This document shows, in pieces, positions 9,584 to 53,537 of a DNA stretch of 64,000 bases. The notes under the pieces are model-generated. The model ran no database searches and was not told where the DNA came from. It was given only the letters and a program-made list of their open reading frames with translations. Each line of letters starts with the position of its first letter. The stretch's first letter is position 1. The DNA comes from a phage. The translations under genes were made by a program, and so were the position numbers. Where the stretch lies: the NCBI GenBank assembly GCA_004257845.1, contig GCA_004257845.1_4800.1, one strand, 5' to 3'.

Positions 9584-10051
9584 ATGATTAACGTTTCCGG
9601 TTTTGGCGCTTCGATTCGTTTGGTAGCATCAAACACTTTTCCGAATGGTGTGACTCTTTCTGATTTTGCAGATGATGCTGATCCGATTGACGCGCCGGAC
9701 CTGCAAATCTCTGAGGCTGCAATGGGCCTTAACGGTGACTTAGTAGTATGGAACCGTGCAAACCCGCTTGAAGTAGGTGTGAACATCATCCCTACTTCTG
9801 AAAGTGATGTCAACTTGGACGTTCTTGCAGCTGCAAACCGCGTAGGCAAGCGTAAGAACTCTGCAAAAGACGTGATCACACTTGTGCTGACTTATCCTTC
9901 TGGAATGGTTATCACGCTAAACAAAGGCACCTTGACAACTGGTTCAGTAATTCCTGGCATCCAGTCTCAAGGTCGTGTGAAAACACGCCAATATCGCTTC
10001 AAGTTTGAGAACGTAGTCAAAACTGGCGTGAGCAACCAAGAGATTTTATAA
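9584..10051 (+). CDS. tail tube-like protein
   Basis: 155 aa; strong RBS GAGAGGAA; paralogous to product of 11002-11499 (MINVSGFGASIRLVA... vs MVNISGFGTSIRIVA..., shared ITYP.G..., KTR/KTNRY motifs). Confidence 0.45.
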   Translation: MINVSGFGASIRLVASNTFPNGVTLSDFADDADPIDAPDLQISEAAMGLNGDLVVWNRANPLEVGVNIIPTSESDVNLDVLAAANRVGKRKNSAKDVITLVLTYPSGMVITLNKGTLTTGSVIPGIQSQGRVKTRQYRFKFENVVKTGVSNQEIL

Positions 10052-11001: not shown

Positions 11002-11499
11002 ATGGTCAATATTAGTGGATTTGGCACAAGCATTAGAATTGTCGCTCTTCAATCTTTTCCTGTTGGGCTGAATATCAGTTCTTTGTCTGATGACCAGGAT
11101 TCGCTAATTATTGAGGAAGTTGAATCAGTAGGTTATCAACTTACTTACGACGGCGGCATTTGCATATACGACAAAGCCGCCGTCGTTCGCGTATCCATTG
11201 CGGTCATTCCAAACACTGAAGACGACATAAATCTTAAGCTTTTATTATCTGCCCGTAAAGGTGGATTCAAGTGGTTGCCAATTCAGGATGTGACATCGAT
11301 GCTCATTACATATCCTGACGGTGGAAGGGTGGCATTCTCTAACGGAACGATAATCAGCGGTCCGCTTGGTGACTCCATAGAGCAATCAGGCCGTCGCAAG
11401 ACAAACCGATACACATTTGTGTTTGCCAGCTACGGTGGCGCACAGAGCACGTCTCAAATTGCCAAGGGCGTGGTGCAGAGCATATTGGGGTCCATTTAA
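11002..11499 (+). CDS. tail tube-like protein, second paralog
   Basis: 165 aa; clear sequence similarity to product of 9584-10051. Confidence 0.45.
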   Translation: MVNISGFGTSIRIVALQSFPVGLNISSLSDDQDSLIIEEVESVGYQLTYDGGICIYDKAAVVRVSIAVIPNTEDDINLKLLLSARKGGFKWLPIQDVTSMLITYPDGGRVAFSNGTIISGPLGDSIEQSGRRKTNRYTFVFASYGGAQSTSQIAKGVVQSILGSI

Positions 11500-39939: not shown

Positions 39940-41124
39940 TTAACGCGCTTTCAAATCACGGTACACGGTCAGATTCTTCTTAGCACGGGTGATAGCTGTG
40001 TACATCATCTTGGAGTACGGAACGCCGCGCAAGATTTCTTCCAGCACGCACACATTGTCCCACTCGCTGCCTTGCGATTTGTGCACCGTGATGACATAGC
40101 CATAATCCATCCCGCCAACAGCGCGTTGGGCCTCTTTGCGCACTTCCTGATCAGTAGAGAAGGAAAGAGGATTAATCTTAACCTTTATATCTTTGCCATC
40201 GGTAAGCGAGCGCAAATTGACATACATGATTTCATTGGACTCGTCTTCGTCCCTTTCAAAGTCCGGCACTGGTTCATAGCTAATAACAATCCCTTGCTCG
40301 CCATTACAGAATCCTGGCCCGTGCTGGTTGAAGGTGCAAATAACTTTCTCGCCGATTCCTGGCATTGGCGTTATACGTCCGCTCACTTGCCGTAATAATG
40401 AATTCCATTTATCTTTGGTGCTATTATAGGAGCAAATAATTTGATCATCTTCGCCCATGAATTTCTTCAATGCAGTAACGCGCGGCGATTCTGCCAGAAC
40501 TTTTACATCGTCGTATTCACGCGGAGGAAGGCGGTTGCCTTGGCGCACGAAGAAGGAGGCGCGGATGATGTTGGACTCTTTCCCTTGGCGCATGATTTCT
40601 GTTAACAGTACGTCAACGGCTTCTTCGGTAAAGTAGGCGGCGGCTTTTACCGGAGGGACTTGTCCAATGTCGCCTAATGCCAGGACAGGGATGCGGTGAT
40701 CAAGAAGGCGCTCTGTGTCCCACTCGCCAACCATTGACGCTTCATCAAGAACAACAAGGAGCGGCTTTTCGTCCAGCTTTGACTTTCTCGAGAATATTGG
40801 CTCATTGTCGTCATTTACGCCGCGCACGTTATAGATGAACTGGTGAAGGGTCTTAGCTCCACGACAGCCTTTTTGCTTTAATCGGCTTGCAGCCTTTCCG
40901 GTAGGCGCAATATAGATAGCGCCGTACTCACCGACACAGCGGCGCACAATCTCGCGAGCAATAGAGGTTTTACCAGTCCCTGCATAGCCAGCGATGAAAA
41001 ACACGCGCTTCGTCGTTTTACCGTCCTGCAATCGCTTGTACCATGCAACGGCCTTCTCGATGGCATCGATTTGTTGCGCGTTAAACTGAATCACTGGCTC
41101 ATCATTAAATTCTGGAATGTTCAT
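39940..41124 (-). CDS. SF1 DNA helicase, RecD/Dda-like
   Basis: Walker A GYAGTGKTS, VVLDEASMV, C-terminal TVHKSQGSEWD. Confidence 0.75.
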   Translation of the reverse strand: MNIPEFNDEPVIQFNAQQIDAIEKAVAWYKRLQDGKTTKRVFFIAGYAGTGKTSIAREIVRRCVGEYGAIYIAPTGKAASRLKQKGCRGAKTLHQFIYNVRGVNDDNEPIFSRKSKLDEKPLLVVLDEASMVGEWDTERLLDHRIPVLALGDIGQVPPVKAAAYFTEEAVDVLLTEIMRQGKESNIIRASFFVRQGNRLPPREYDDVKVLAESPRVTALKKFMGEDDQIICSYNSTKDKWNSLLRQVSGRITPMPGIGEKVICTFNQHGPGFCNGEQGIVISYEPVPDFERDEDESNEIMYVNLRSLTDGKDIKVKINPLSFSTDQEVRKEAQRAVGGMDYGYVITVHKSQGSEWDNVCVLEEILRGVPYSKMMYTAITRAKKNLTVYRDLKAR

Positions 41125-41450
41125 TATAACTCCACTACGCTTTCAAGGTCCAGATATACTGGAATAAAATGGCAATCTTCTTTTCGTTCAAACATCTCAC
41201 CATCAACATGGCTGAAGAAAACAGTCGTGTTTGGTATCTTCCATCCTTTCTCGTCGCGCACTAAGTACGCCATGGATTCAACAGGGATGTACAGAGATAC
41301 CGGATTTGCGGCAAAAATAAATTTGATTCTGTCTGGTTGACCCAGGAATCGCATGATTGTTAGGCTTGAATTCAATCTTGTATTAAGGAAGGACTCAACG
41401 ATTCCGACGTGTGTTGCACGTTCGCGTTGCTTCGTCTCTTTTTCGTTCAT
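41124..41450 (-). CDS. hypothetical protein
   Basis: ORF; start overlaps helicase; minus-strand promoter upstream. Confidence 0.4.
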   Translation of the reverse strand: MNEKETKQRERATHVGIVESFLNTRLNSSLTIMRFLGQPDRIKFIFAANPVSLYIPVESMAYLVRDEKGWKIPNTTVFFSHVDGEMFERKEDCHFIPVYLDLESVVEL

Positions 41451-41488
41451 TTCAGGCGACCTTTGTTAGTGCGGAAATATTTTCTGAT

Positions 41489-41517
41489 AGTATAATTGCA
41501 GATATAGTATAAAGCAA
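41489..41517 (-). promoter_or_regulatory. sigma70-like promoter on minus strand (TTGCTT-17 nt-TATACT)
   Basis: Minus-strand -35 TTGCTT (plus 41512-41517), -10 TATACT (plus 41489-41494); divergent from + strand promoter. Confidence 0.4.
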
Positions 41518-41553
41518 AGTAAATCGAAATTGTGAACTAAATGGTAAATATTG

Positions 41554-41581
41554 TTGACTTTGTATCACTCAATATTATACT
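41554..41581 (+). promoter_or_regulatory. sigma70-like early promoter (TTGACT-16 nt-TATACT)
   Basis: -35 TTGACT 41554-41559, -10 TATACT 41576-41581, upstream of RBS GAAGGAAAG and ATG at 41611. Confidence 0.5.
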
Positions 41582-41610
41582 GCAGGTATTGATCACCGAA
41601 GGAAAGAAAG

Positions 41611-42693
41611 ATGGCTAGTTTAAGAGAAGAAGCAAAAATAATTGAAGAGTTTTTAACAGAACTCCAAAGAGGCATCCCAGAAGATGAGCGCGTCATGACG
41701 GTGTTTGCTCCTGAAGCAACGGTGCAGACCGACGAGCGCGGCAAGAAGATCAACAGCAGCTTCTGGCCTAAGCCTTGGAAGTTGGGCAAGCCGCTCATGC
41801 AGCACCAAAACGGCTATGCATGCATCAGTTCAATGCGTAAGTCTCCCAACCCAAAGACGGGTGAGATGCGATACTGGCGTACAGAGTCGGCCTTTGGTCA
41901 CGGCATGGCGATGATGGTCGACGACATCGGTCACGGTAAAGGTTCCAAAGGCGATTTAGATTTGGAATTCTTTTTTGAGCGACTGAAGCCGACTGTCATC
42001 GTCGAGACTTCACCGAACAACCACCAGCTTTGGTACTTCTTTAAAGAACCGATTGACCATCTTATTCAGTTCAAAGCGTTCCTTGGGTCTTTCGTTAACA
42101 TGGTACTCAAGAAGGGCGGCGACAACACGATTAAAGACGTAACGCGCGTGGGTCGTGTTCCTGGGTGCATCAACAACAAGCGTGTGACTCACGACGGCCC
42201 CTATAAATATGTCGATGAGAACGGCGACCCGTTCCGCTGCCGACTTGTCCATGCAGACTACTCATTGCGCTACACCATCGAAGACATTTGTCAGGCATTT
42301 GGCTTTCACGTCGTCATGCCACAAAATCGTGAGATTCAAATTGACGTCGATGAATACAAGTATGATGCTGTTTGGTATAAAATAGCCCAGCAGATTCTAT
42401 CGCGCAACAAGATGGGTGAAGGGTCTGATGGCGACGTCATCGAGAATATGTCAGGCAAGTGCCGCATAATCTGTCCTTGGGGTGAAGAACACACCAACGG
42501 CGACCCGTATGGCGCTTACTTTCGCGGCCCTATCCCTGGTGCAGAACATGAGTTTGTGTTCGGTTGCGCCCACGACTGTCACCGGAAAGGGGAAGGCAAG
42601 AAAGGTTGGACTGCTTTTGTTGAAGCAATCGTCATGCCTTATATTGAGAATCAACTTGACATGATAAATCGTCGTGCAGGTGGCATAAAATAG
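41611..42693 (+). CDS. AEP-type primase-polymerase-like protein with C-terminal zinc-binding motif
   Basis: MMVDDIGHG (acidic motif), ETSPNNHQLWYFF (SxH-like), C-terminal Cys/His cluster CPWGEEH...GCAHDCH. Confidence 0.45.
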   Translation: MASLREEAKIIEEFLTELQRGIPEDERVMTVFAPEATVQTDERGKKINSSFWPKPWKLGKPLMQHQNGYACISSMRKSPNPKTGEMRYWRTESAFGHGMAMMVDDIGHGKGSKGDLDLEFFFERLKPTVIVETSPNNHQLWYFFKEPIDHLIQFKAFLGSFVNMVLKKGGDNTIKDVTRVGRVPGCINNKRVTHDGPYKYVDENGDPFRCRLVHADYSLRYTIEDICQAFGFHVVMPQNREIQIDVDEYKYDAVWYKIAQQILSRNKMGEGSDGDVIENMSGKCRIICPWGEEHTNGDPYGAYFRGPIPGAEHEFVFGCAHDCHRKGEGKKGWTAFVEAIVMPYIENQLDMINRRAGGIK

Positions 42694-44002: not shown

Positions 44003-45673
44003 ATGTCAATTAATAATGACAATCTTCCAGAGGATACAGGTGATGAATTTGGTGCAATCTTTGACGAAATTCAAGATGCAGGTGTTTCGGAAGAAATGCA
44101 GGCAGCAGAGCAGCAAGGCACCAGAGCTAAAATCAGCCTTCAACACAAAGCTGTTGAAAAAGATTCAGAGCGCATGGAATGCTACGGTGAAGAAGACTTG
44201 GTTGAAAGAGCACGCTTGCTCGCCTCACTTCAGGTAATCAAGTTCCCTCACTACAAGCCTACCAAAGATGACTTCGTTCTACAGGCAGACCGGACGAGTG
44301 ACATGAACCGTTATGCGGTTTTCGACGCGTTGTTTGATAAGGGAAGTGGCATTGTTCCATTCCCTCACAAAGATACTTTTCGTGGGCGCTTAGTCGACCA
44401 TCGCGGCGAAACATTCACTGACCGTACCTTGGAAGTCACAGAGATAGTCGCTGCTGTCGACGCAGCAGGGTTGTCCAACCCAAACTCACGTCAGGTCGCT
44501 CAATCCTATAAGGAATGGGCCATGCGTTATCAGCGTGACGACCTGATGGACTTCTTCTACAAGAAGCTGCCTGAATGGGACGGTACTGCGCGCATCGAGA
44601 AATACCTTATCGAGCTATTCCGACCGTTCGATACAGAGTTAAACCGACAAATCGGTGTGTATTTTTGGCTATCGCTCTACAACCGCCTGACCAACCCTGG
44701 CTGTCAAGCGCCAATCTCCATCGCGCTAATCGGCGGCCAGAACGCAGGGAAGAGTTATTTTAGCAAGCTGCTTTGCGAAGCTATTATGAACGACCGCCAC
44801 GCAACACCGATTCCGTTGAACTTAGCCGCGCAAAACTTCAACCCGTTCTTGCGAGCTATTACGGGTCGCTCAATTATCGCGAACGTTGGCGAGATGACAG
44901 GCTTTAAAAAGGCCGACATCGAAAACATGAAAGCATTCCTGACTAAGACGGAAGATGACCTGGACTTCAAATTTGAAGATACGCAGGTTAAACCACGCCA
45001 GTGGATTGCCATCATGGACGGCAACGAATACGCAGGCATGCAGCGTGACGATACGGGCAACCGTCGTGTTTACCCTATCTTTGTTGGCCAACTTGCTGAC
45101 AAGGACGGGCAACCGAACTGGTCTAAAGACTTCCAAGCTGACCTTTCCACTTTGAAAGAAGATGTTTGGCAGCTTATGGCTGAGTGCGCTGCGTGGATGG
45201 AGAAGCACGGCGAAGCAGGCTATAACGCGTTTGTTGGTGAAACATCTCGCATGCTTACTGAGTTCAGTAAAAACGAAATGGAACGTGCACGCGGCGTTAT
45301 CCGTGATGAGATGGTCGACAACGACCTTGTTGAAGTCGTCATCACCGCGCCTTATGACCGACATCACAGCGGACGCTGGCACATCACAAGTGGTGCTATT
45401 GCTATGGGATTCAGAGCGAAGTGCGGCAAGTCGCCTTTCTCTCGTACCCTTGCGCCGCACATGTCGAAGCTTGGCTTTGAGCCTGCGACCTATCGCAACC
45501 AGCGCGGCTACTTTACGCCGCTGATTAAGAATGAAGCAGGGGAATACATTTCTGATCTGATGACCATCTTAGCGTATCTTATCCGCGATGAGTCTGACCC
45601 TGAAGATATTGAATTCTTGAAGAAGGTTATTGAGCGTAAACGTTCTTTGGGAAGAGATAAGGATGAATTCTGA
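44003..45673 (+). CDS. P-loop NTPase, primase-associated/D5-like helicase family (putative)
   Basis: Walker A LIGGQNAGKSYFSKLL; Walker B-like IAIMDGNE; RBS AGGAGG. Confidence 0.5.
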   Translation: MSINNDNLPEDTGDEFGAIFDEIQDAGVSEEMQAAEQQGTRAKISLQHKAVEKDSERMECYGEEDLVERARLLASLQVIKFPHYKPTKDDFVLQADRTSDMNRYAVFDALFDKGSGIVPFPHKDTFRGRLVDHRGETFTDRTLEVTEIVAAVDAAGLSNPNSRQVAQSYKEWAMRYQRDDLMDFFYKKLPEWDGTARIEKYLIELFRPFDTELNRQIGVYFWLSLYNRLTNPGCQAPISIALIGGQNAGKSYFSKLLCEAIMNDRHATPIPLNLAAQNFNPFLRAITGRSIIANVGEMTGFKKADIENMKAFLTKTEDDLDFKFEDTQVKPRQWIAIMDGNEYAGMQRDDTGNRRVYPIFVGQLADKDGQPNWSKDFQADLSTLKEDVWQLMAECAAWMEKHGEAGYNAFVGETSRMLTEFSKNEMERARGVIRDEMVDNDLVEVVITAPYDRHHSGRWHITSGAIAMGFRAKCGKSPFSRTLAPHMSKLGFEPATYRNQRGYFTPLIKNEAGEYISDLMTILAYLIRDESDPEDIEFLKKVIERKRSLGRDKDEF

Positions 45674-49106: not shown

Positions 49107-49424
49107 ATGATTTACTTAGGCATCGACAAGGAACAGGACGAGCGGTTAGGAAGCGTGTTAAACGTAGACTTGAACACAGCTGTACACACCAAGCCTTGGC
49201 CAGAGGGCCACCCCGACGTAGTTGTACCCGTTGCACCTTGGACGCGTTACGTGGCCATTGACGATAACGGCCTTGTTCATTGTTACTCAGAAAAGCCGAC
49301 ATACTTCGAAAAGTATCACCAATGGCTCATGACTGGATGGGCAAAGGTGCGCTGTTGCGGCGAAGTCGGTCTGGATGGCTGGAGCTTCGAGGCTAGTGAA
49401 TCGTGTGTCGAGGTGCAATTATGA
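49107..49424 (+). CDS. hypothetical protein
   Basis: ORF preceded by AGTGAGGTGA. Confidence 0.4.
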   Translation: MIYLGIDKEQDERLGSVLNVDLNTAVHTKPWPEGHPDVVVPVAPWTRYVAIDDNGLVHCYSEKPTYFEKYHQWLMTGWAKVRCCGEVGLDGWSFEASESCVEVQL

Positions 49425-49639
49425 ATGCCGCGCTGGGTAAGTTGTCTTTTAATAAGCGCAATGAGTTGCGTATGGTGTCGGCTTTTCAGCGCACCCTTAA
49501 TGCCATGTCAAGCATTGCAATGACAATTCTTCGTGCCGATTGTCCTGAAGAAGAACGTGAGTGCTTGTACGCAAGACACAAACAACTAAACAAAGCTGCA
49601 TTCAAGTTGCAGCAATATGCTATGGAGTATGCGAAATGA
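49421..49639 (+). CDS. hypothetical protein
   Basis: ATG 49421 overlapping previous stop (ATGA). Confidence 0.35.
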   Translation: MNAALGKLSFNKRNELRMVSAFQRTLNAMSSIAMTILRADCPEEERECLYARHKQLNKAAFKLQQYAMEYAK

Positions 49640-50019
49640 GAATGAAGCGTTGCCCTTACTGCCACGATGTGATGCACCTTCCACACGAAGAGTTTGTGCA
49701 GCACATGACTGACTGTGATAAGAATCCTAATAGCGAAAGCCAACTTGAAGAAAGAATGTTCTTGGTGTCATTCAAAGCTTCTGCTTATGAAGTGCAACGT
49801 TCTTACGGCGCACCAAGTACGATTTACTGTCCAACAACATTGAGAAGCGACATCGACTCAATTCAGCTTGCGGCCTGGATTAACGTTAAGGAAGGAATCA
49901 CGCCGCACTTTATTGCGCGCATCCAATCTCAGATTCTACAAATCAAGCGCGAATACAACCGTGACATCACTGAAGTGAAGGTGTTGTCTATCACGCCGAT
50001 GAATAAGGAGTTGCCGTGA
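49636..50019 (+). CDS. putative zinc-binding protein, hypothetical
   Basis: ATG 49636; N-terminal CPYCHDVMHLPHEEFVQHMTDC. Confidence 0.4.
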   Translation: MRMKRCPYCHDVMHLPHEEFVQHMTDCDKNPNSESQLEERMFLVSFKASAYEVQRSYGAPSTIYCPTTLRSDIDSIQLAAWINVKEGITPHFIARIQSQILQIKREYNRDITEVKVLSITPMNKELP

Positions 50020-50276: not shown

Positions 50277-50348
50277 TTCAAAAAGGTGAGCTAAATGCTT
50301 GCCTTTTTATTTACCTGTATTATACTTAGTTCATCAAGCAAAGGAGAA

Positions 50349-50657
50349 ATGATTATGAGTTACGACGAAAGGTTTGGCAGAAGCGGATTATTTCATGACG
50401 CTGTACACAAAGACAGCAAAGATGTTGTCTGCGCATTCAAGGTTGATTCTTACGGTACGCTGAAACCTTTTAAGGTCGGCGAAACATACAAGCTGTTTCA
50501 CGGATGGTTAACGCGTCGCAACAACTTGCCTGACATGGAAGTCTGGTGGATAGAATACAATGGTCAGGCTCATCGGTGCAAGGTTGTAGAGGTGCGCGGC
50601 GTGACCTACTACCAATCTGTTATCAGCGGCTTTGTTTTTAAAGAGGGTGAGTTATGA
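50349..50657 (+). CDS. hypothetical protein
   Basis: ATG 50349 preceded by AAGGAG. Confidence 0.4.
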   Translation: MIMSYDERFGRSGLFHDAVHKDSKDVVCAFKVDSYGTLKPFKVGETYKLFHGWLTRRNNLPDMEVWWIEYNGQAHRCKVVEVRGVTYYQSVISGFVFKEGEL

Positions 50658-50959
50658 GCACCAAAGCGATGAAGATTAAGTTGTTGAAGGTGATGCAGGC
50701 CGCTGTAGAGTGCGGCGCTATTCAGGAGTTCAAAGAGACTCAAGAAGGCGGTGAGCCAGTATTCTTCTTTAAGAATAAGAAAGGTGCGGCAGTTGCGTTG
50801 ATGCTCTTGAAGAACAGCGACACGACCTTTATTCTTTGCGCAGGCGGTTATGACCTTGTTGCCGATGACGCTTACATCACCTGCGCGACGGGCCTTAATC
50901 CTATGTTAACGTTCGAGCGTCGCGGTATTCGTGTTGCGACATTTGGAGGCTGTTTATGA
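50654..50959 (+). CDS. hypothetical protein (N-terminal module shared with 51469 product)
   Basis: KLLKVMQAAVECGAIQEFKE resembles QLEAVLEMAVKAGAIKSWRRE of the 51469-51972 product. Confidence 0.4.
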   Translation: MSTKAMKIKLLKVMQAAVECGAIQEFKETQEGGEPVFFFKNKKGAAVALMLLKNSDTTFILCAGGYDLVADDAYITCATGLNPMLTFERRGIRVATFGGCL

Positions 50960-51252
50960 AACTAAGTTTAGCACAAGTCCAAACATTATACCGTATGGAA
51001 GACGGGACGCGATATATGTTGCGTGGCGATTGCAAGAAGGCTCATGAGAAGCGCCCATCGCTGTTTCATGACGTCAATGCACCATCAATCCCTGTTTTGT
51101 TTCGCCTTGGGCTTGTTGATTGGGCGGTTCAAGGAGAAAAAGACCCAAGGCTATATTCATTTGTGGTGATGACAAAGAAGGGTCGCGAGGCATTACAAGG
51201 AATTAAAGAGAATATGAGAGGAGGAAAATACTATTATGACATCCAACCTTAA
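50956..51252 (+). CDS. hypothetical protein
   Basis: ORF with 4-nt overlap. Confidence 0.4.
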   Translation: MKLSLAQVQTLYRMEDGTRYMLRGDCKKAHEKRPSLFHDVNAPSIPVLFRLGLVDWAVQGEKDPRLYSFVVMTKKGREALQGIKENMRGGKYYYDIQP

Positions 51253-51472
51253 AGCCCGTTTGTTATTCATCAAGCCACATATGCCTTATAAGATTAGTAA
51301 ACGCACCTGGCTCAACATCTACAACCGCAGCGGCGACCGTTGCTTGTACAAGGCGAAGCGACGCAAGAAGGTATATTTAAAAGCGGTGATGTCGCAGCCA
51401 GTCGATGCATTCATCATCGGAGAAAATGAATTGTCAGTAGGACATCAAATCGAACTCGGAGCAAAGAAATGA
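51236..51472 (+). CDS. hypothetical protein
   Basis: ORF in early array. Confidence 0.35.
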   Translation: MTSNLKARLLFIKPHMPYKISKRTWLNIYNRSGDRCLYKAKRRKKVYLKAVMSQPVDAFIIGENELSVGHQIELGAKK

Positions 51473-51972
51473 AAATCGAACAACTCGAAGCAGTATTGGA
51501 AATGGCTGTTAAAGCAGGCGCAATCAAAAGCTGGCGTCGCGAGAAGTCGGATGACGCCGCGCACTTTTGCCGCAACTTCTATATTGTCGGCAACCTTAAC
51601 GACCACTACACCATCGAGTGGTATACTAATATGATGACGCTTAAGTCGCGCACCATGGAGCTTTGGTGCAATGACATTTGCTTATCCAACACTCATCCAT
51701 CCTACGACGTTGCATTGGCATTCTATCACGGAAGTCATCAACCAGTAGCCCACATTGGTGAGAAGCACGAATACCTGAAGGCGGGACCAGAAGATCCAAT
51801 GGAAGGTTGGATTGAATGGTCTGGCGGCAAGAATCCGGTGCCTGGTAAAAAGGTCATGTTGATGTGGAGGAATGGCGCAAAGTCATCATACGCTTTCAAT
51901 TCAAAAGGATACATATGGACTCACGACGGAAGCACCCATGACATCATCGCTTATCGCGTCGTGGAGGAATAA
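51469..51972 (+). CDS. hypothetical protein with shared C-terminal module
   Basis: C-terminal WIEWSGGKNPVPGKKV...IIAYRVVEE similar to C-terminus of 53118-53537 product. Confidence 0.4.
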   Translation: MKIEQLEAVLEMAVKAGAIKSWRREKSDDAAHFCRNFYIVGNLNDHYTIEWYTNMMTLKSRTMELWCNDICLSNTHPSYDVALAFYHGSHQPVAHIGEKHEYLKAGPEDPMEGWIEWSGGKNPVPGKKVMLMWRNGAKSSYAFNSKGYIWTHDGSTHDIIAYRVVEE

Positions 51973-52313
51973 TGGAAGAGCAAGAAGGCCGTGAGCTAAC
52001 GTTCGACGAGCAGATGCAAGAGCTTCAGCGCACATCGCCGCTGCGCGGTAAGGTTGTTGACATCGAGGCGAGAGAATCCAATCTCACCCAGTGGCGGCTC
52101 AAGTGCACCAGCGCAAGCAAGGATATGTTAAGCTTCAAAGTCGGTCAGACCTATTTGCTTTATGAGGCAAAAGGACTTATTATTGATGGAAGGCAAATTG
52201 TCTTCACGGTCGTCAGCGGAATGCGTTGGTTTGTGAAGCGTGATGTCGAGGGCCGTGACATGTTTGTCGCAGGCTTTCCAGCAACAAGATTCCAATTGGA
52301 GAAGGTTGAATGA
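51972..52313 (+). CDS. hypothetical protein
   Basis: ORF, overlapping start/stop. Confidence 0.4.
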   Translation: MEEQEGRELTFDEQMQELQRTSPLRGKVVDIEARESNLTQWRLKCTSASKDMLSFKVGQTYLLYEAKGLIIDGRQIVFTVVSGMRWFVKRDVEGRDMFVAGFPATRFQLEKVE

Positions 52314-52633
52314 AGTCTCTTCAACTGCACGCGCAATCGCTTGCATCTAAGTTCGGATTCATGGATGGTGACATCGTGTCACTTTTCTGTGAAGAAAATA
52401 ATATTGAATCAGAATTAAAGGACAAAGACTCCCACGACGTTTTAATCAAATTAGTAAGGAAGCACCTTTTGCCGCTGGTAAGTCACGTTGAGGTGTTTGA
52501 AATATCAACGATGCACAACCCGATACGTTGTGAAGATGAATTCATTGATGATATGCGTCAAAGCGATGTGCAAGTTGAAGTTGGCATCAAAGAAGTATTA
52601 CAGTGCATTAAAGAAACGGAGAAATTTGAATGA
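52310..52633 (+). CDS. hypothetical protein
   Basis: ORF with 4-nt overlap. Confidence 0.4.
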   Translation: MKSLQLHAQSLASKFGFMDGDIVSLFCEENNIESELKDKDSHDVLIKLVRKHLLPLVSHVEVFEISTMHNPIRCEDEFIDDMRQSDVQVEVGIKEVLQCIKETEKFE

Positions 52634-53121
52634 CTAACAAAACGCAGCGCATCAATTTTGAAGGTAAAGAATACGAAATAGACGCTCGTGCAAGATTTGT
52701 TGCGCGCGATTCTAACGGAACCATCTGGGCGTATGAGGGGAAACCTGCATGGAACGATTGGCGCGGCCAGTGGGGATACGAAGTCGGCGATTCGCTTTGG
52801 TGCAAGCAAATTGGTGATGGAAAGATGTTTGAAGAGAACAGACCCGCATCACGCGATTCATTGAAGGAAGTGGCAGAAATCAAAATCCAGGACCCAACGC
52901 CGTCGACCGATAATCAATACGCAGTCGGGCAACGTGACATCGAGCAACTCGACGAGGGCGGCTATTATACGCGCCACATCTATGCTATGACTCAAGAAGG
53001 ACTTTACAGCAAGTCGGACATTGCCGCTGAACTGGCCCATCGTGACTTGCAAATTGACCTGCTCAAGATAGAAGTGCAAAACTTACGCAACACCCTTTTA
53101 AATACCTGGAGCTTAAAATGA
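52630..53121 (+). CDS. hypothetical protein
   Basis: ORF with 4-nt overlap. Confidence 0.4.
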   Translation: MTNKTQRINFEGKEYEIDARARFVARDSNGTIWAYEGKPAWNDWRGQWGYEVGDSLWCKQIGDGKMFEENRPASRDSLKEVAEIKIQDPTPSTDNQYAVGQRDIEQLDEGGYYTRHIYAMTQEGLYSKSDIAAELAHRDLQIDLLKIEVQNLRNTLLNTWSLK

Positions 53122-53537
53122 TACAGCGTTACGATGTTGATTATTGCACGCAGCACGCTTGCACTTGTGAAGTTGTAAAGGATGATGAAGGCGGCTATGT
53201 TGAATATGAGGACTATGAATCACTACTCAAGCTTAATGAGTCGCTAACAAAAGAGATTGAGCAATACCGCGAGCGCATCAAAGTCGCTGAAGATATTATC
53301 AAGCTTTTTAGCGAGGCTGTTGAGAAATACAAGGAGCGCAACGTACCGATTAAGGAGGAAGCGTGGACCGTGTGGTTTGGTGGCGTGAATCCGGTGCCTG
53401 GGAAGATGGTTGAGTTTGAATTACTCAACGGTTATAAATCAAAAGGTGCTGTTCCTTCGGATAGTTTGACATGGGATAAAGTCACAAGCCCGACTGGTGC
53501 AAAGATTGTTGCTTATCGGGTCGTTAAGGAGGGGTGA
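53118..53537 (+). CDS. hypothetical protein with shared C-terminal module
   Basis: C-terminal WTVWFGGVNPVPGKMV...IVAYRVVKEG similar to 51469 product. Confidence 0.4.
   Translation: MIQRYDVDYCTQHACTCEVVKDDEGGYVEYEDYESLLKLNESLTKEIEQYRERIKVAEDIIKLFSEAVEKYKERNVPIKEEAWTVWFGGVNPVPGKMVEFELLNGYKSKGAVPSDSLTWDKVTSPTGAKIVAYRVVKEG

Follow-up and report, generated by a model that had tools for sequence, protein, structure and literature searches.

A recombining C-terminal module shared by two small proteins of a Wifcevirus-like Escherichia coli phage

Most small early or accessory genes of phages have no assigned function. Three such genes, here called A, B and C, lie in a window of 64,000 nucleotides (the whole stretch of DNA analysed) from a Wifcevirus-like E. 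coli myophage. They raise the question of whether parts of proteins have been exchanged between neighbouring genes, and what a part that moves in this way might do. The three genes belong to a tightly packed plus-strand operon that begins with a RepB-like primase and a VapE-like protein, and within it B and C lie on the same strand, 1.4 kb apart. A sigma70-like site at 41554-41581 precedes the operon; the promoter/terminator scan as a whole stayed at background, with 26 promoter-like sites where 24.8 were expected. The features of the locus are listed in Table 1.

Table 1. Positions in the window of genes A, B and C and of the segments recognised in B and C.
Feature	Coordinates	Strand	Description or evidence
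Gene A	50654-50959	+	ORF of 101 aa
Gene B	51469-51972	+	ORF of 167 aa
B N-domain, residues 1-104	51469..51780	+	phrog_21861; N-terminal helix followed by beta strands (AF2 secondary structure)
B inter-domain linker, residues 105-111	51781..51801	+	Variable; lower pLDDT
B module copy, residues 112-167 plus stop	51802..51972	+	WxxWxGGxNPVPG...W.H...DIIAYRVV; BLASTP, module HMM, AF2
15-nt run GAATCCGGTGCCTGG in B, encoding NPVPG (5' recombination anchor)	51831..51845	+	Identical in both copies
Gene C	53118-53537	+	ORF of 139 aa
C segment N1, residues 1-33 (MIQRYDVD...YEDY)	53118..53216	+	Orthologue sequences; phrog_23083
C helical, coiled-coil-like segment, residues 34-80	53217..53357	+	Coiled coil suggested by sequence alone
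C module copy, residues 81-139 plus stop	53358..53537	+	BLASTP; module HMM; module type cluster 6
Second copy of the 15-nt NPVPG-coding run, in C	53387..53401	+	Exact match to the run in B

Pairwise BLASTP aligned B residues 112-167 with C residues 81-138 at 47% identity over 58 residues (E=1e-11). When BLASTP was run on the full set of 464 window ORFs (40 aa or longer), the match was recovered with E=3e-9 and was one of only two protein pairs from unrelated loci; no module copy beyond those of B and C was found among these ORFs. The Smith-Waterman score of 109 compares with 28.4 ± 4.7 for shuffled sequences, and 0 of 2000 shuffles reached it. Profile-profile comparison of the B and C orthologue families gave P=1.2e-22 and a probability of 99.5%. 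The alignment was confined to B 90-167 and C 65-138, and the N-termini of the two proteins are thus unrelated. Moreover, the C family showed no N-terminal similarity to the B N-domain profile (P=0.095). A preliminary description had proposed a C-terminal module of about 55 residues behind unrelated N-termini; both parts of this proposal hold, with a module of about 56 residues. In DNA the two copies are 57% identical, with differences at all bases, and the 15-nt run is the longest exact stretch that they have in common. Diversification of the DGR type was rejected on these features, there being no template/variable repeat pattern.

The relation of A to B emerged at the level of profiles. BLASTP returned no alignment of the two at E<=100, and their Smith-Waterman score of 44 (shuffles 24.2 ± 4.0; 2 of 2000 reached 44) ranked fourth among 300 early-gene pairs. 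With shallow orthologue profiles, hhalign gave P=1.5-2.2e-4 over 35 columns. Once Phapecoctavirus homologues had been added to the B profile the alignment covered 82 columns (P=9e-5), and with distant metagenomic homologues added it joined A 9-99 to B 5-98 over 83 columns (P=1.1e-6, 91% probability). Against this deepest B profile, the best of 23 unrelated families gave P=0.018 and reversed A gave P=0.0018. The deeper-profile alignment and its controls therefore point to distant homology of a whole domain and not to a 20-residue module. The earlier claim that A and B share about 20 N-terminal residues stands as homology at the profile level, but its extent must be revised to the whole domain of about 95 residues; on formal alignment, the B-C similarity was significant and the A-B similarity gave no BLASTP alignment. 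A is probably a free-standing distant paralogue of the entire B N-domain and not an ordinary member of phrog_21861: hmmscan of A against PHROGs gave nothing at E<=0.01, whereas our own deeper B profile detected it. The tblastn matches of gene A came from 23 records, all Wifcevirus. An FKVGxTYxL motif common to 50295-50657 and 51972-52313 was also considered and rejected (P=0.004, not significant after correction for 300 comparisons).

An iterated HMM of the module matched B 112-165 with an i-Evalue of 4e-27 and C 81-136 with an i-Evalue of 3e-22. Its consensus reads [DE]GWIEW-x-GG-x-[CN]PV...V.V..R.G...W.H...DIIAYR.V. The near-invariant W, W, G(G), P, central W and I-A-Y-R are all present in the B and C copies; missing from the C copy are the His that often follows the central W and the Asp that precedes IVAYR. 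As these family-conserved residues are absent from C and the other well-conserved positions are only W, G, P, Y and R, the module is presumably non-enzymatic. A metal-binding or catalytic role was rejected on the same absence of His and Asp, and also because the only conserved Cys is Asn in Wifcevirus. Modelled alone with AF2, the module gave a pLDDT of 90.5. In the full-length B model (pTM 0.38) it kept a pLDDT of 91-96, while residues 51-110 were of low confidence and the block 101-110 averaged 61. The models thus predict an autonomous, independently folding small beta domain of about 55 residues. In its size, mostly beta content and use in tandem or with oligomerising segments it resembles small beta-barrel binders (SH3-like, Tudor, Sm), and one family member has a weak Tudor_Coilin match (E=2.3e-5). 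The PDB contained no counterpart of the module.

A first profile, built from an alignment of 17 sequences, gave 119 homologues, none of which (0/119) carries a precomputed Pfam domain and 66 of which are no longer than 80 aa. Since most members found with this profile are stand-alone proteins of 57-80 residues, the module is probably functional alone. With the threshold at E<=1e-3 the family counts at least 11,194 cluster representatives, and with E<=1e-10 it counts 4,253; the best 150 of the 11,194 all have 2-7 module copies. Tandem pairs are found in phiM19 gp326 and O4_67. Across eight phage groups the module is N-terminal, central or C-terminal, and it occurs stand-alone, in tandem arrays or fused to varied partners, including helical segments. 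The phages that carry it infect Escherichia, Sinorhizobium, Pseudomonas, Edwardsiella, Klebsiella and Campylobacter. Most stand-alone modules are acidic, with a median pI of 4.8 and a net charge of -5, and 85% fall below pI 6; in temperate phages they lie in early accessory regions beside Lar, NinX and Ead/Ea22.

For the module, Pfam, NCBIfam and PADLOC gave no match above the curated thresholds, and sub-threshold matches were at chance level. Four PHROGs (phrog_9174, phrog_11995, phrog_16943 and phrog_26870) match both modules over the module region with E-values of 6.5e-15 to 4e-3. All four are labelled 'unknown function', and they are the sole library entries that contain the module. PHROGs splits it over whole-protein families with different partner regions, and the unit of about 55 residues, its repeats and its variability are not defined there. 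A literature search on the module motif, Wifcevirus, vB_Eco4M-7 and DUF3310 returned nothing on these genes or on the domain. The module can now be delimited as a compact domain that neither Pfam nor NCBIfam covers and for which no structure has been solved, although at least 11,000 sequence clusters in many phage groups represent it.

B residues 1-104 match phrog_21861 over 104/104 profile positions (E=3.3e-53). Free-standing homologues of this domain, about 100 aa long and about 48% identical, are present in Phapecoctavirus, and a stand-alone form of 108 aa is present in Mansfield, AV128 and P0318. The family phrog_21861 is thus free-standing in Phapecoctavirus and Wifcevirus, whereas the window's copy bears the C-terminal module. 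C residues 1-43 match phrog_23083 (E=4e-10). Segment N1 of C is one of three alternative types in the genus. The helical segment, which has weak matches to helical families, is one of two alternative, sequence-unrelated types, and these assort independently of both N1 and module type. Gene C is thus built from three independently assorting segments. The architecture of N1, helix and module recurs in the metagenomic proteins P0018, P0075, P0084 and P0095.

Comparison with relatives in the genus revealed how the module varies. In the 46 B orthologues compared, identity ranges from 78 to 100% (median 90) in the N-domain but from 28 to 100% (median 46) in the module core; seven core types and five linker types can be told apart. 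Six sets of paired linkers and paired cores have all four combinations across the NPVPG motif, which shows recombination at NPVPG. Eight module types were distinguished in 11 genomes plus the window. The B module of ECML-117 groups with C modules, namely those of FEC19, Bas101 and Bas100 (80-85% identity). In Mansfield and AV128, B has no module, and in ECO71P1, C has two. ECML-117 has lost everything between both module copies: its DNA switches from B-like to C-like inside the 5' motif of the module, then runs into the gene after C. The same B-C fusion is seen independently in P0296. Frameshifted or truncated B alleles (P0287, P0314 and P0319) show that the module is dispensable in some lineages. 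A viral-contig search for related loci yielded 6 loci only.

Throughout the genus the frame of the module is kept, with WxxWxGGxNPVPG at the 5' end, DIIAYRVV at the 3' end and a hypervariable core of about 30 codons between them. Mean pairwise DNA identity is 0.76-0.82 in these anchors and 0.39-0.50 in the core, and the NPVPG-coding run is conserved in DNA over all allele types at both loci. The gene downstream of B (51972-52313) is 91-96% identical whatever the module type, and also where the module is absent. Domain swapping, as proposed in the preliminary description, is strongly supported and goes further than claimed: cores move among B alleles and between the B and C positions, and they have been lost or duplicated in relatives. 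We are confident that a mobile domain and recombination underlie the evolution of this locus.

Chance or composition might be invoked from the shortness of the motifs and the missing BLASTP alignment of A and B. Its probability is negligible given the B-C statistics (E=1e-11, P=1e-22, 0/2000 shuffles) and, for A and B, a P of 1.1e-6 against 0.018 for the best control among 23 families and 0.0018 for reversed A. B and C could instead be ordinary paralogues left by an old duplication within the genome, the apparent shuffling being uneven divergence with no exchange. Their spacing, common strand and common operon would suit this origin, and 57% DNA identity is compatible with it. It is nevertheless extremely improbable: the N-termini have no profile similarity (P=0.095), the B N-domain exists without the module in other phages, and thousands of proteins consist of the module by itself. 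Moreover, all four linker/core combinations occur over the NPVPG junction, one core type is found at the B locus of ECML-117 and at the C locus of FEC19, Bas101 and Bas100, and the three segments of gene C assort independently. We also consider it very unlikely that the repeat matters mainly at the DNA level, with anchors that recombine and so favour rearrangements in the accessory region, the peptide being incidental. The identical 15-nt run, the conserved 3' DNA around a variable core, and the deletion between copies in ECML-117 and P0296 are in line with such sites. However, conservation is seen at the protein level over six host genera, the amino-acid pattern is position-specific and the predicted fold is confident. 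As the anchors encode the most conserved structural motifs, the conservation of their DNA can be attributed to protein constraint.

A further alternative concerns function: the module would be an accessory domain that binds nucleotides or nucleic acids in the service of the phage's nucleotide or DNA metabolism, and B and C would be replication regulators or adaptors and not host-directed effectors. Among the best 150 family members, all multi-copy, about 13% carry a MazG-like or HD nucleotide hydrolase domain as fusion partner, a hint of a role linked to nucleotides. The fusions in this set are to dGTP_diPhyd_N (8), DUF3310/SaV-like (7), DUF6378 (4), dATP-dGTP_PPHyd (1), HD (1) and winged-helix (1) domains. 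The phiM19 module follows a DNA ligase, the module of Vequintavirus I29 lies between helicase and primase genes, and the window operon itself begins with the RepB-like primase and the VapE-like protein. Tandem arrays would suit a polymeric ligand. On the other side, the median pI of 4.8 of stand-alone modules is unusual for nucleic-acid binders, about 85% of the best 150 members have no recognisable partner domain, and the genomic contexts are heterogeneous, for example between head and portal genes or beside lysis genes. Structurally, too, the module resembles none of the known folds that bind nucleotides or DNA. Taken together, we judge this alternative distinctly unlikely.

On balance, B and C are probably two-part proteins around one mobile domain, in which the module may serve as a binding unit with a variable core. 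B consists of the module on a globular N-domain, and C of the module on a small N-terminal segment and a helical, coiled-coil-like segment. Recombination at the short anchors moves cores between alleles and between the B and C positions, duplicates them, or deletes the interval. Repetition in tandem (2-7 copies) or fusion to helical segments would often make the module multivalent. As a non-enzymatic binding unit, it would owe its target specificity to the variable core, while the N-terminal parts would add a second activity or oligomerisation. The turnover of cassettes would reflect selection from a variable partner, be it a protein of the host or one that serves in defence. The pattern of a cassette that is hypervariable and recombines while its scaffolds are conserved makes an interaction-specificity element likely, and yet a function in binding specificity can be put forward for this module only tentatively. 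The conserved aromatic residues could form a ligand site instead of a hydrophobic core, and the hypervariability could stem from relaxed constraint plus recombination instead of positive selection.

The genes may have an early or host-takeover role, as their genomic context suggests; no reports on their expression or on host effects were found in the literature. The idea, raised at the outset, of a host partner shared by both modules is doubtful, because the divergence between the modules of B and C is greatest in the core, the part that is hypervariable throughout the genus; it is more likely that the two have different specificities. It is a more speculative and rather doubtful extension that the module is a previously unrecognised and very abundant phage specificity domain, a small binding scaffold whose hypervariable core is swapped as a cassette in response to a host or defence protein that itself varies. 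With it, B and C would either target two distinct N-terminal activities or act as multivalent inhibitors. In that case, the >11,000 clusters of the family would offer a large, as yet unexploited source of host-factor or anti-defence binders whose fold has no solved relative.

Phage accessory genes ('moron' or early genes) evolve by mosaic, modular exchange. Like other mosaic loci, the present one has packed small genes with presence/absence polymorphism, domains that fuse and split, and recombination at short stretches of conserved sequence. Unlike the usual case, the unit here is a sub-domain core in a conserved fold, which is exchanged both between two paralogous positions and between genomes. 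Short conserved coding motifs here act as recombination anchors through which phage domains are fused, swapped or deleted. In form, B also resembles CdiA-CT and Rhs toxins and phage receptor-binding tips, with a conserved N-domain, a junction motif (NPVPG) and a recombining variable C-terminus. A toxin/immunity-like cassette of the CdiA-CT or Rhs kind was rejected, as all cores of the module share one fold and the downstream gene is not a cognate partner that co-varies with module type. Neither Pfam nor PADLOC recognised a toxin domain or secretion signal in the window proteins. A tractable test system is offered by the Wifcevirus phages Bas98-Bas101, which differ in their natural module combinations and can be grown on an engineered E. 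coli K-12 (PMC11990801).

ORFs A, B and C are present where the preliminary description had placed them, and the C-terminal module of about 55 residues that it had noticed in B and C, framed by WxxWxGGxNPVPG and DIIAYRVV, is borne out by formal alignment. BLASTP aligned the two modules over 58 residues with 47% identity (E=1e-11), and the pair gave E=3e-9 when all 464 ORFs of the window were compared with one another. The Smith-Waterman score was 109, against 28 +/- 5 for shuffled sequences. Profile-profile comparison of the B and C orthologue families gave P=1.2e-22, with the similarity limited to the module. B and C are fusions of this module to unrelated N-terminal parts. The sole other paralogue pair among window ORFs is 9584-10051 and 11002-11499 (33% identity, 141 residues, E=1e-25), whose products both match phrog_2420, annotated as tail fiber protein.

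Structure prediction of the module alone, envisaged in the preliminary description, yielded a small, mostly beta domain (pLDDT 90.5, pTM 0.72). In the AlphaFold model of full-length B, the module is confident (pLDDT 91-96), the N-domain (a helix at residues 3-15, followed by strands) is weaker and the linker is of low confidence, with a pTM of 0.38. Confident module, low-confidence linker and low pTM are the signature of independent domains, and B is predicted to consist of two. Residues 34-80 of C appear from their sequence to be helical and coiled-coil-like. The same layout of N1, helical segment and module is found in the unrelated metagenomic proteins P0018, P0075, P0084 and P0095.

Coordinates of the features in the window and of related genes in other phages
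Feature	Coordinates	Strand	Remarks
UvrD/PIF1-like helicase	39940-41124	-	flanks intergenic region 41100-41620, opposite the RepB-like primase at 41611
Sigma70-like site	41554-41581		upstream of operon
RepB-like primase	41611-42693	+	first gene of the operon holding A, B and C
VapE-like protein	44003-45673	+	also at operon beginning
A	50654-50959	+	101 aa
B	51469-51972	+	167 aa; N-domain (1-104), linker (105-111), module
C	53118-53537	+	139 aa; N1 (1-33), putative helical, coiled-coil-like segment (34-80), module (81-139)
B N-domain fused to C-type module	ECML-117 L009 2683-3644		also in P0296
Free-standing 72-aa phrog_34533 gene	Bas98 L019 5001-5219		
Free-standing 72-aa phrog_34533 gene	Bas99 L018 4992-5210		
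Free-standing 72-aa phrog_34533 gene	WFC L007 4255-4473		
94-aa family	Bas98 L019 2112-2396		34-residue segment in common with the 49561-50019 product

A shared N-terminus of about 20 residues had also been proposed for A and B. BLASTP found no match between the two products. Their local alignment score of 44 (24 +/- 4 for shuffles) was equalled by 2 of 2000 shuffles and ranked fourth among 300 pairs. The profile signal rose with the depth of the B N-domain profile: shallow profiles gave P=1.5-2.2e-4 (35 columns), the addition of Phapecoctavirus homologues P=9e-5 (82 columns), and that of distant metagenomic homologues P=1.1e-6 (91% probability, 83 columns, A 9-99 and B 5-98). With the same deepened profile, the best of 23 unrelated families reached P=0.018 and reversed A P=0.0018. 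The strength of this match and the weakness of the controls indicate that A is a free-standing distant paralogue of the entire B N-domain. Thus the likeness is real at the profile level, although BLASTP misses it, and it is not confined to the N-terminus; the 'AV..GAI' motif is merely its best-conserved helix. Residues 1-104 of B match phrog_21861 end to end. The B N-domain is a free-standing gene of about 100 aa in Phapecoctavirus (about 48% identity) and a module-less 108-aa gene in P0318 and two Wifceviruses, Mansfield and AV128.

Mapping of the window genes onto 11 related genomes revealed a highly mosaic region. In relatives, the B N-domain is 84-97% identical to that of the window, the module is of differing types, and Mansfield has B without it. 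Among 46 full-length B orthologues drawn from a large protein collection, identity is 78-100% in the N-domain (median 90) and 28-100% in the core after NPVPG (median 46), and the two are nearly uncorrelated (r=0.16). These orthologues comprise seven core types and five linker types; six sets of two linker by two core types are each represented by all four pairings on either side of the NPVPG junction. Several of the metagenomic B orthologues P0287, P0314, P0319, P0324 and P0327 carry a frameshift or truncation within the module or immediately ahead of it (...GWIDWGQRRESGAW is one instance), and are either pseudogenes or sequencing errors. In relatives, the N1 segment of C comes in three types, the helical segment in two and the module in at least three, in many combinations; ECO71P1 has two tandem modules and kaset an internal insertion.

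Modules also travel between the B and C loci. The ECML-117 B module, which bears a C-type 'KEG' tail, has 80-85% identity with the C modules of FEC19, Bas101 and Bas100; with other B modules its identity is only 55-61%. At the DNA level, nucleotides 1-387 of this gene are B-like, it is C-like from nucleotide 333 on, and it leads directly into the gene normally next after C. A crossover inside the module 5' motif therefore deleted the approximately 1.5 kb between the module copies. The same fusion, independent of ECML-117, is carried by P0296 (66-kb contig), and equivalents of window 51972-53357 are absent from both. The two window copies share 57% DNA identity and an exact 15-nt run, GAATCCGGTGCCTGG, encoding NPVPG. 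When all allele types are compared pairwise in 18-nt windows, DNA identity averages 0.76-0.78 at the NPVPG motif and 0.72-0.82 where the 3' end encodes DIIAYRVV, yet falls to 0.39-0.50 in the intervening core of some 30 codons. These conserved ends offer cassette exchange its natural anchors. The module is swapped, duplicated and deleted through recombination at such short motifs; the domain swapping first suspected is thus strongly supported, and extended to core/linker recombination, exchange between loci and the two fusions.

The module belongs to a real, very large and uncurated family, and is an autonomous, mobile protein domain. By tblastn it was found in 77 phage records, from Wifcevirus (as a rule twice in each genome), Sinorhizobium Emdodecavirus, Pseudomonas Paundecimvirus, Edwardsiella Yokohamavirus, Klebsiella phages, Vequintavirus, Jilinvirus and Kagunavirus. 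Its position in the protein may be N-terminal, central or C-terminal, and phiM19 gp326 and O4_67 contain exact tandem pairs. None of the 119 proteins retrieved by a 17-sequence profile has any Pfam domain, and 66 are of at most 80 aa and so are the module alone. When a profile of 110 sequences was used for an exhaustive HMMER search, 11,194 cluster representatives passed E<=1e-3 and 4,253 passed E<=1e-10. Every one of the best 150 of these carries 2-7 copies, with few recognisable partner domains: dGTP_diPhyd_N (8), DUF3310/SaV-like (7), DUF6378 (4), and dATP-dGTP_PPHyd, HD and winged helix (1 each). P0218, P0254, P0266 and other multi-copy members have two tandem modules followed by the dGTP_diPhyd_N (MazZ-like) domain; DUF3310/SaV-like and DUF6378 are the remaining recurrent partners. 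Pfam, NCBIfam and PADLOC hold no model for the module, PHROGs spreads it over several families, each of unknown function, and a literature search for its motif returned no paper containing it. Temperate phage contigs carry stand-alone modules in early accessory regions, with Lar, NinX and Ead/Ea22 as neighbours, or have them after a CI-like repressor gene in the downstream direction.

Conservation is strong at W, G, P, Y and R, Asn replaces the family's one conserved Cys in Wifcevirus-type phages, and its frequent His and Asp are absent from copy C; the module may therefore be a non-enzymatic binding unit. Generic nucleic-acid binding is argued against by the acidity of the stand-alone proteins (median pI 4.8). 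The fusions with MazG-like nucleotide hydrolases point to a possible nucleotide-linked role. Multivalency, in tandem arrays and helical fusions, together with a hypervariable core on a fixed frame, suggests that the module recognises a variable partner, and repetition or oligomerisation may supply the avidity. The preliminary description had the two modules perhaps targeting a shared host partner; judging from their sequences, which differ most in the variable core, a target common to B and C is unlikely. The part in host takeover that it had given to these proteins is a putative one.

Polymorphic toxins and receptor-binding tips resemble this arrangement in form, with a conserved scaffold, a junction motif and a variable C-terminal cassette. 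However, the B/C module fails their defining tests, and all its variants have one fold. A toxin-like cassette was rejected: the gene directly downstream of B (51972-52313) is 91-96% identical to the window in 10 of the 11 related genomes whatever the B module type, even with module-less B. ECML-117 is the one genome without this gene, whose product had no PHROG or Pfam match in these searches. A DGR target was rejected from the comparison of the two window copies at the DNA level, and membership of an SH3-like, Tudor or other solved fold is unsupported. Module shuffling is a phenomenon of an already known kind, the same process as classic phage mosaicism.

The 50-54 kb stretch resembles Wifcevirus-type E. 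coli myophages (genomes of about 68 kb), with Bas101, Bas99 and Bas98 as best matches (91-94% identity, patchy coverage of 55-88%); every gene under these matches is annotated 'hypothetical protein'. A, B and C lie within one dense + strand operon, in which stop and start codons overlap and which extends to about 54 kb via about 25 small ORFs. The region 41100-41620 separates it from divergent - strand replication genes, and the best sigma70-like sites of a promoter scan of both strands fall there.

Other segments of the operon are also shared. FKVGxTYxL[FY] occurs in the products of both 50295-50657 and 51972-52313, and this relation (BLASTP E=0.006; hhalign P=0.004, 14 columns) was rejected, as it is no longer significant once 300 comparisons are corrected for. 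A second common module links residues 44-77 of the 49107-49424 product to residues 19-52 of the 52630-53121 product (BLASTP E=1e-4; hhalign P=1.6e-5, 79% probability), and both products match phrog_1972. The C-terminal half of the latter (residues 93-163, phrog_34533) matches a free-standing 72-aa gene (hhalign P=1e-51), and is another fusion/fission polymorphism in the operon. Residues 26-59 of the 49561-50019 product match the N-terminus of a different 94-aa family in relatives (hhalign P=8.6e-10), and are a further exchanged segment.
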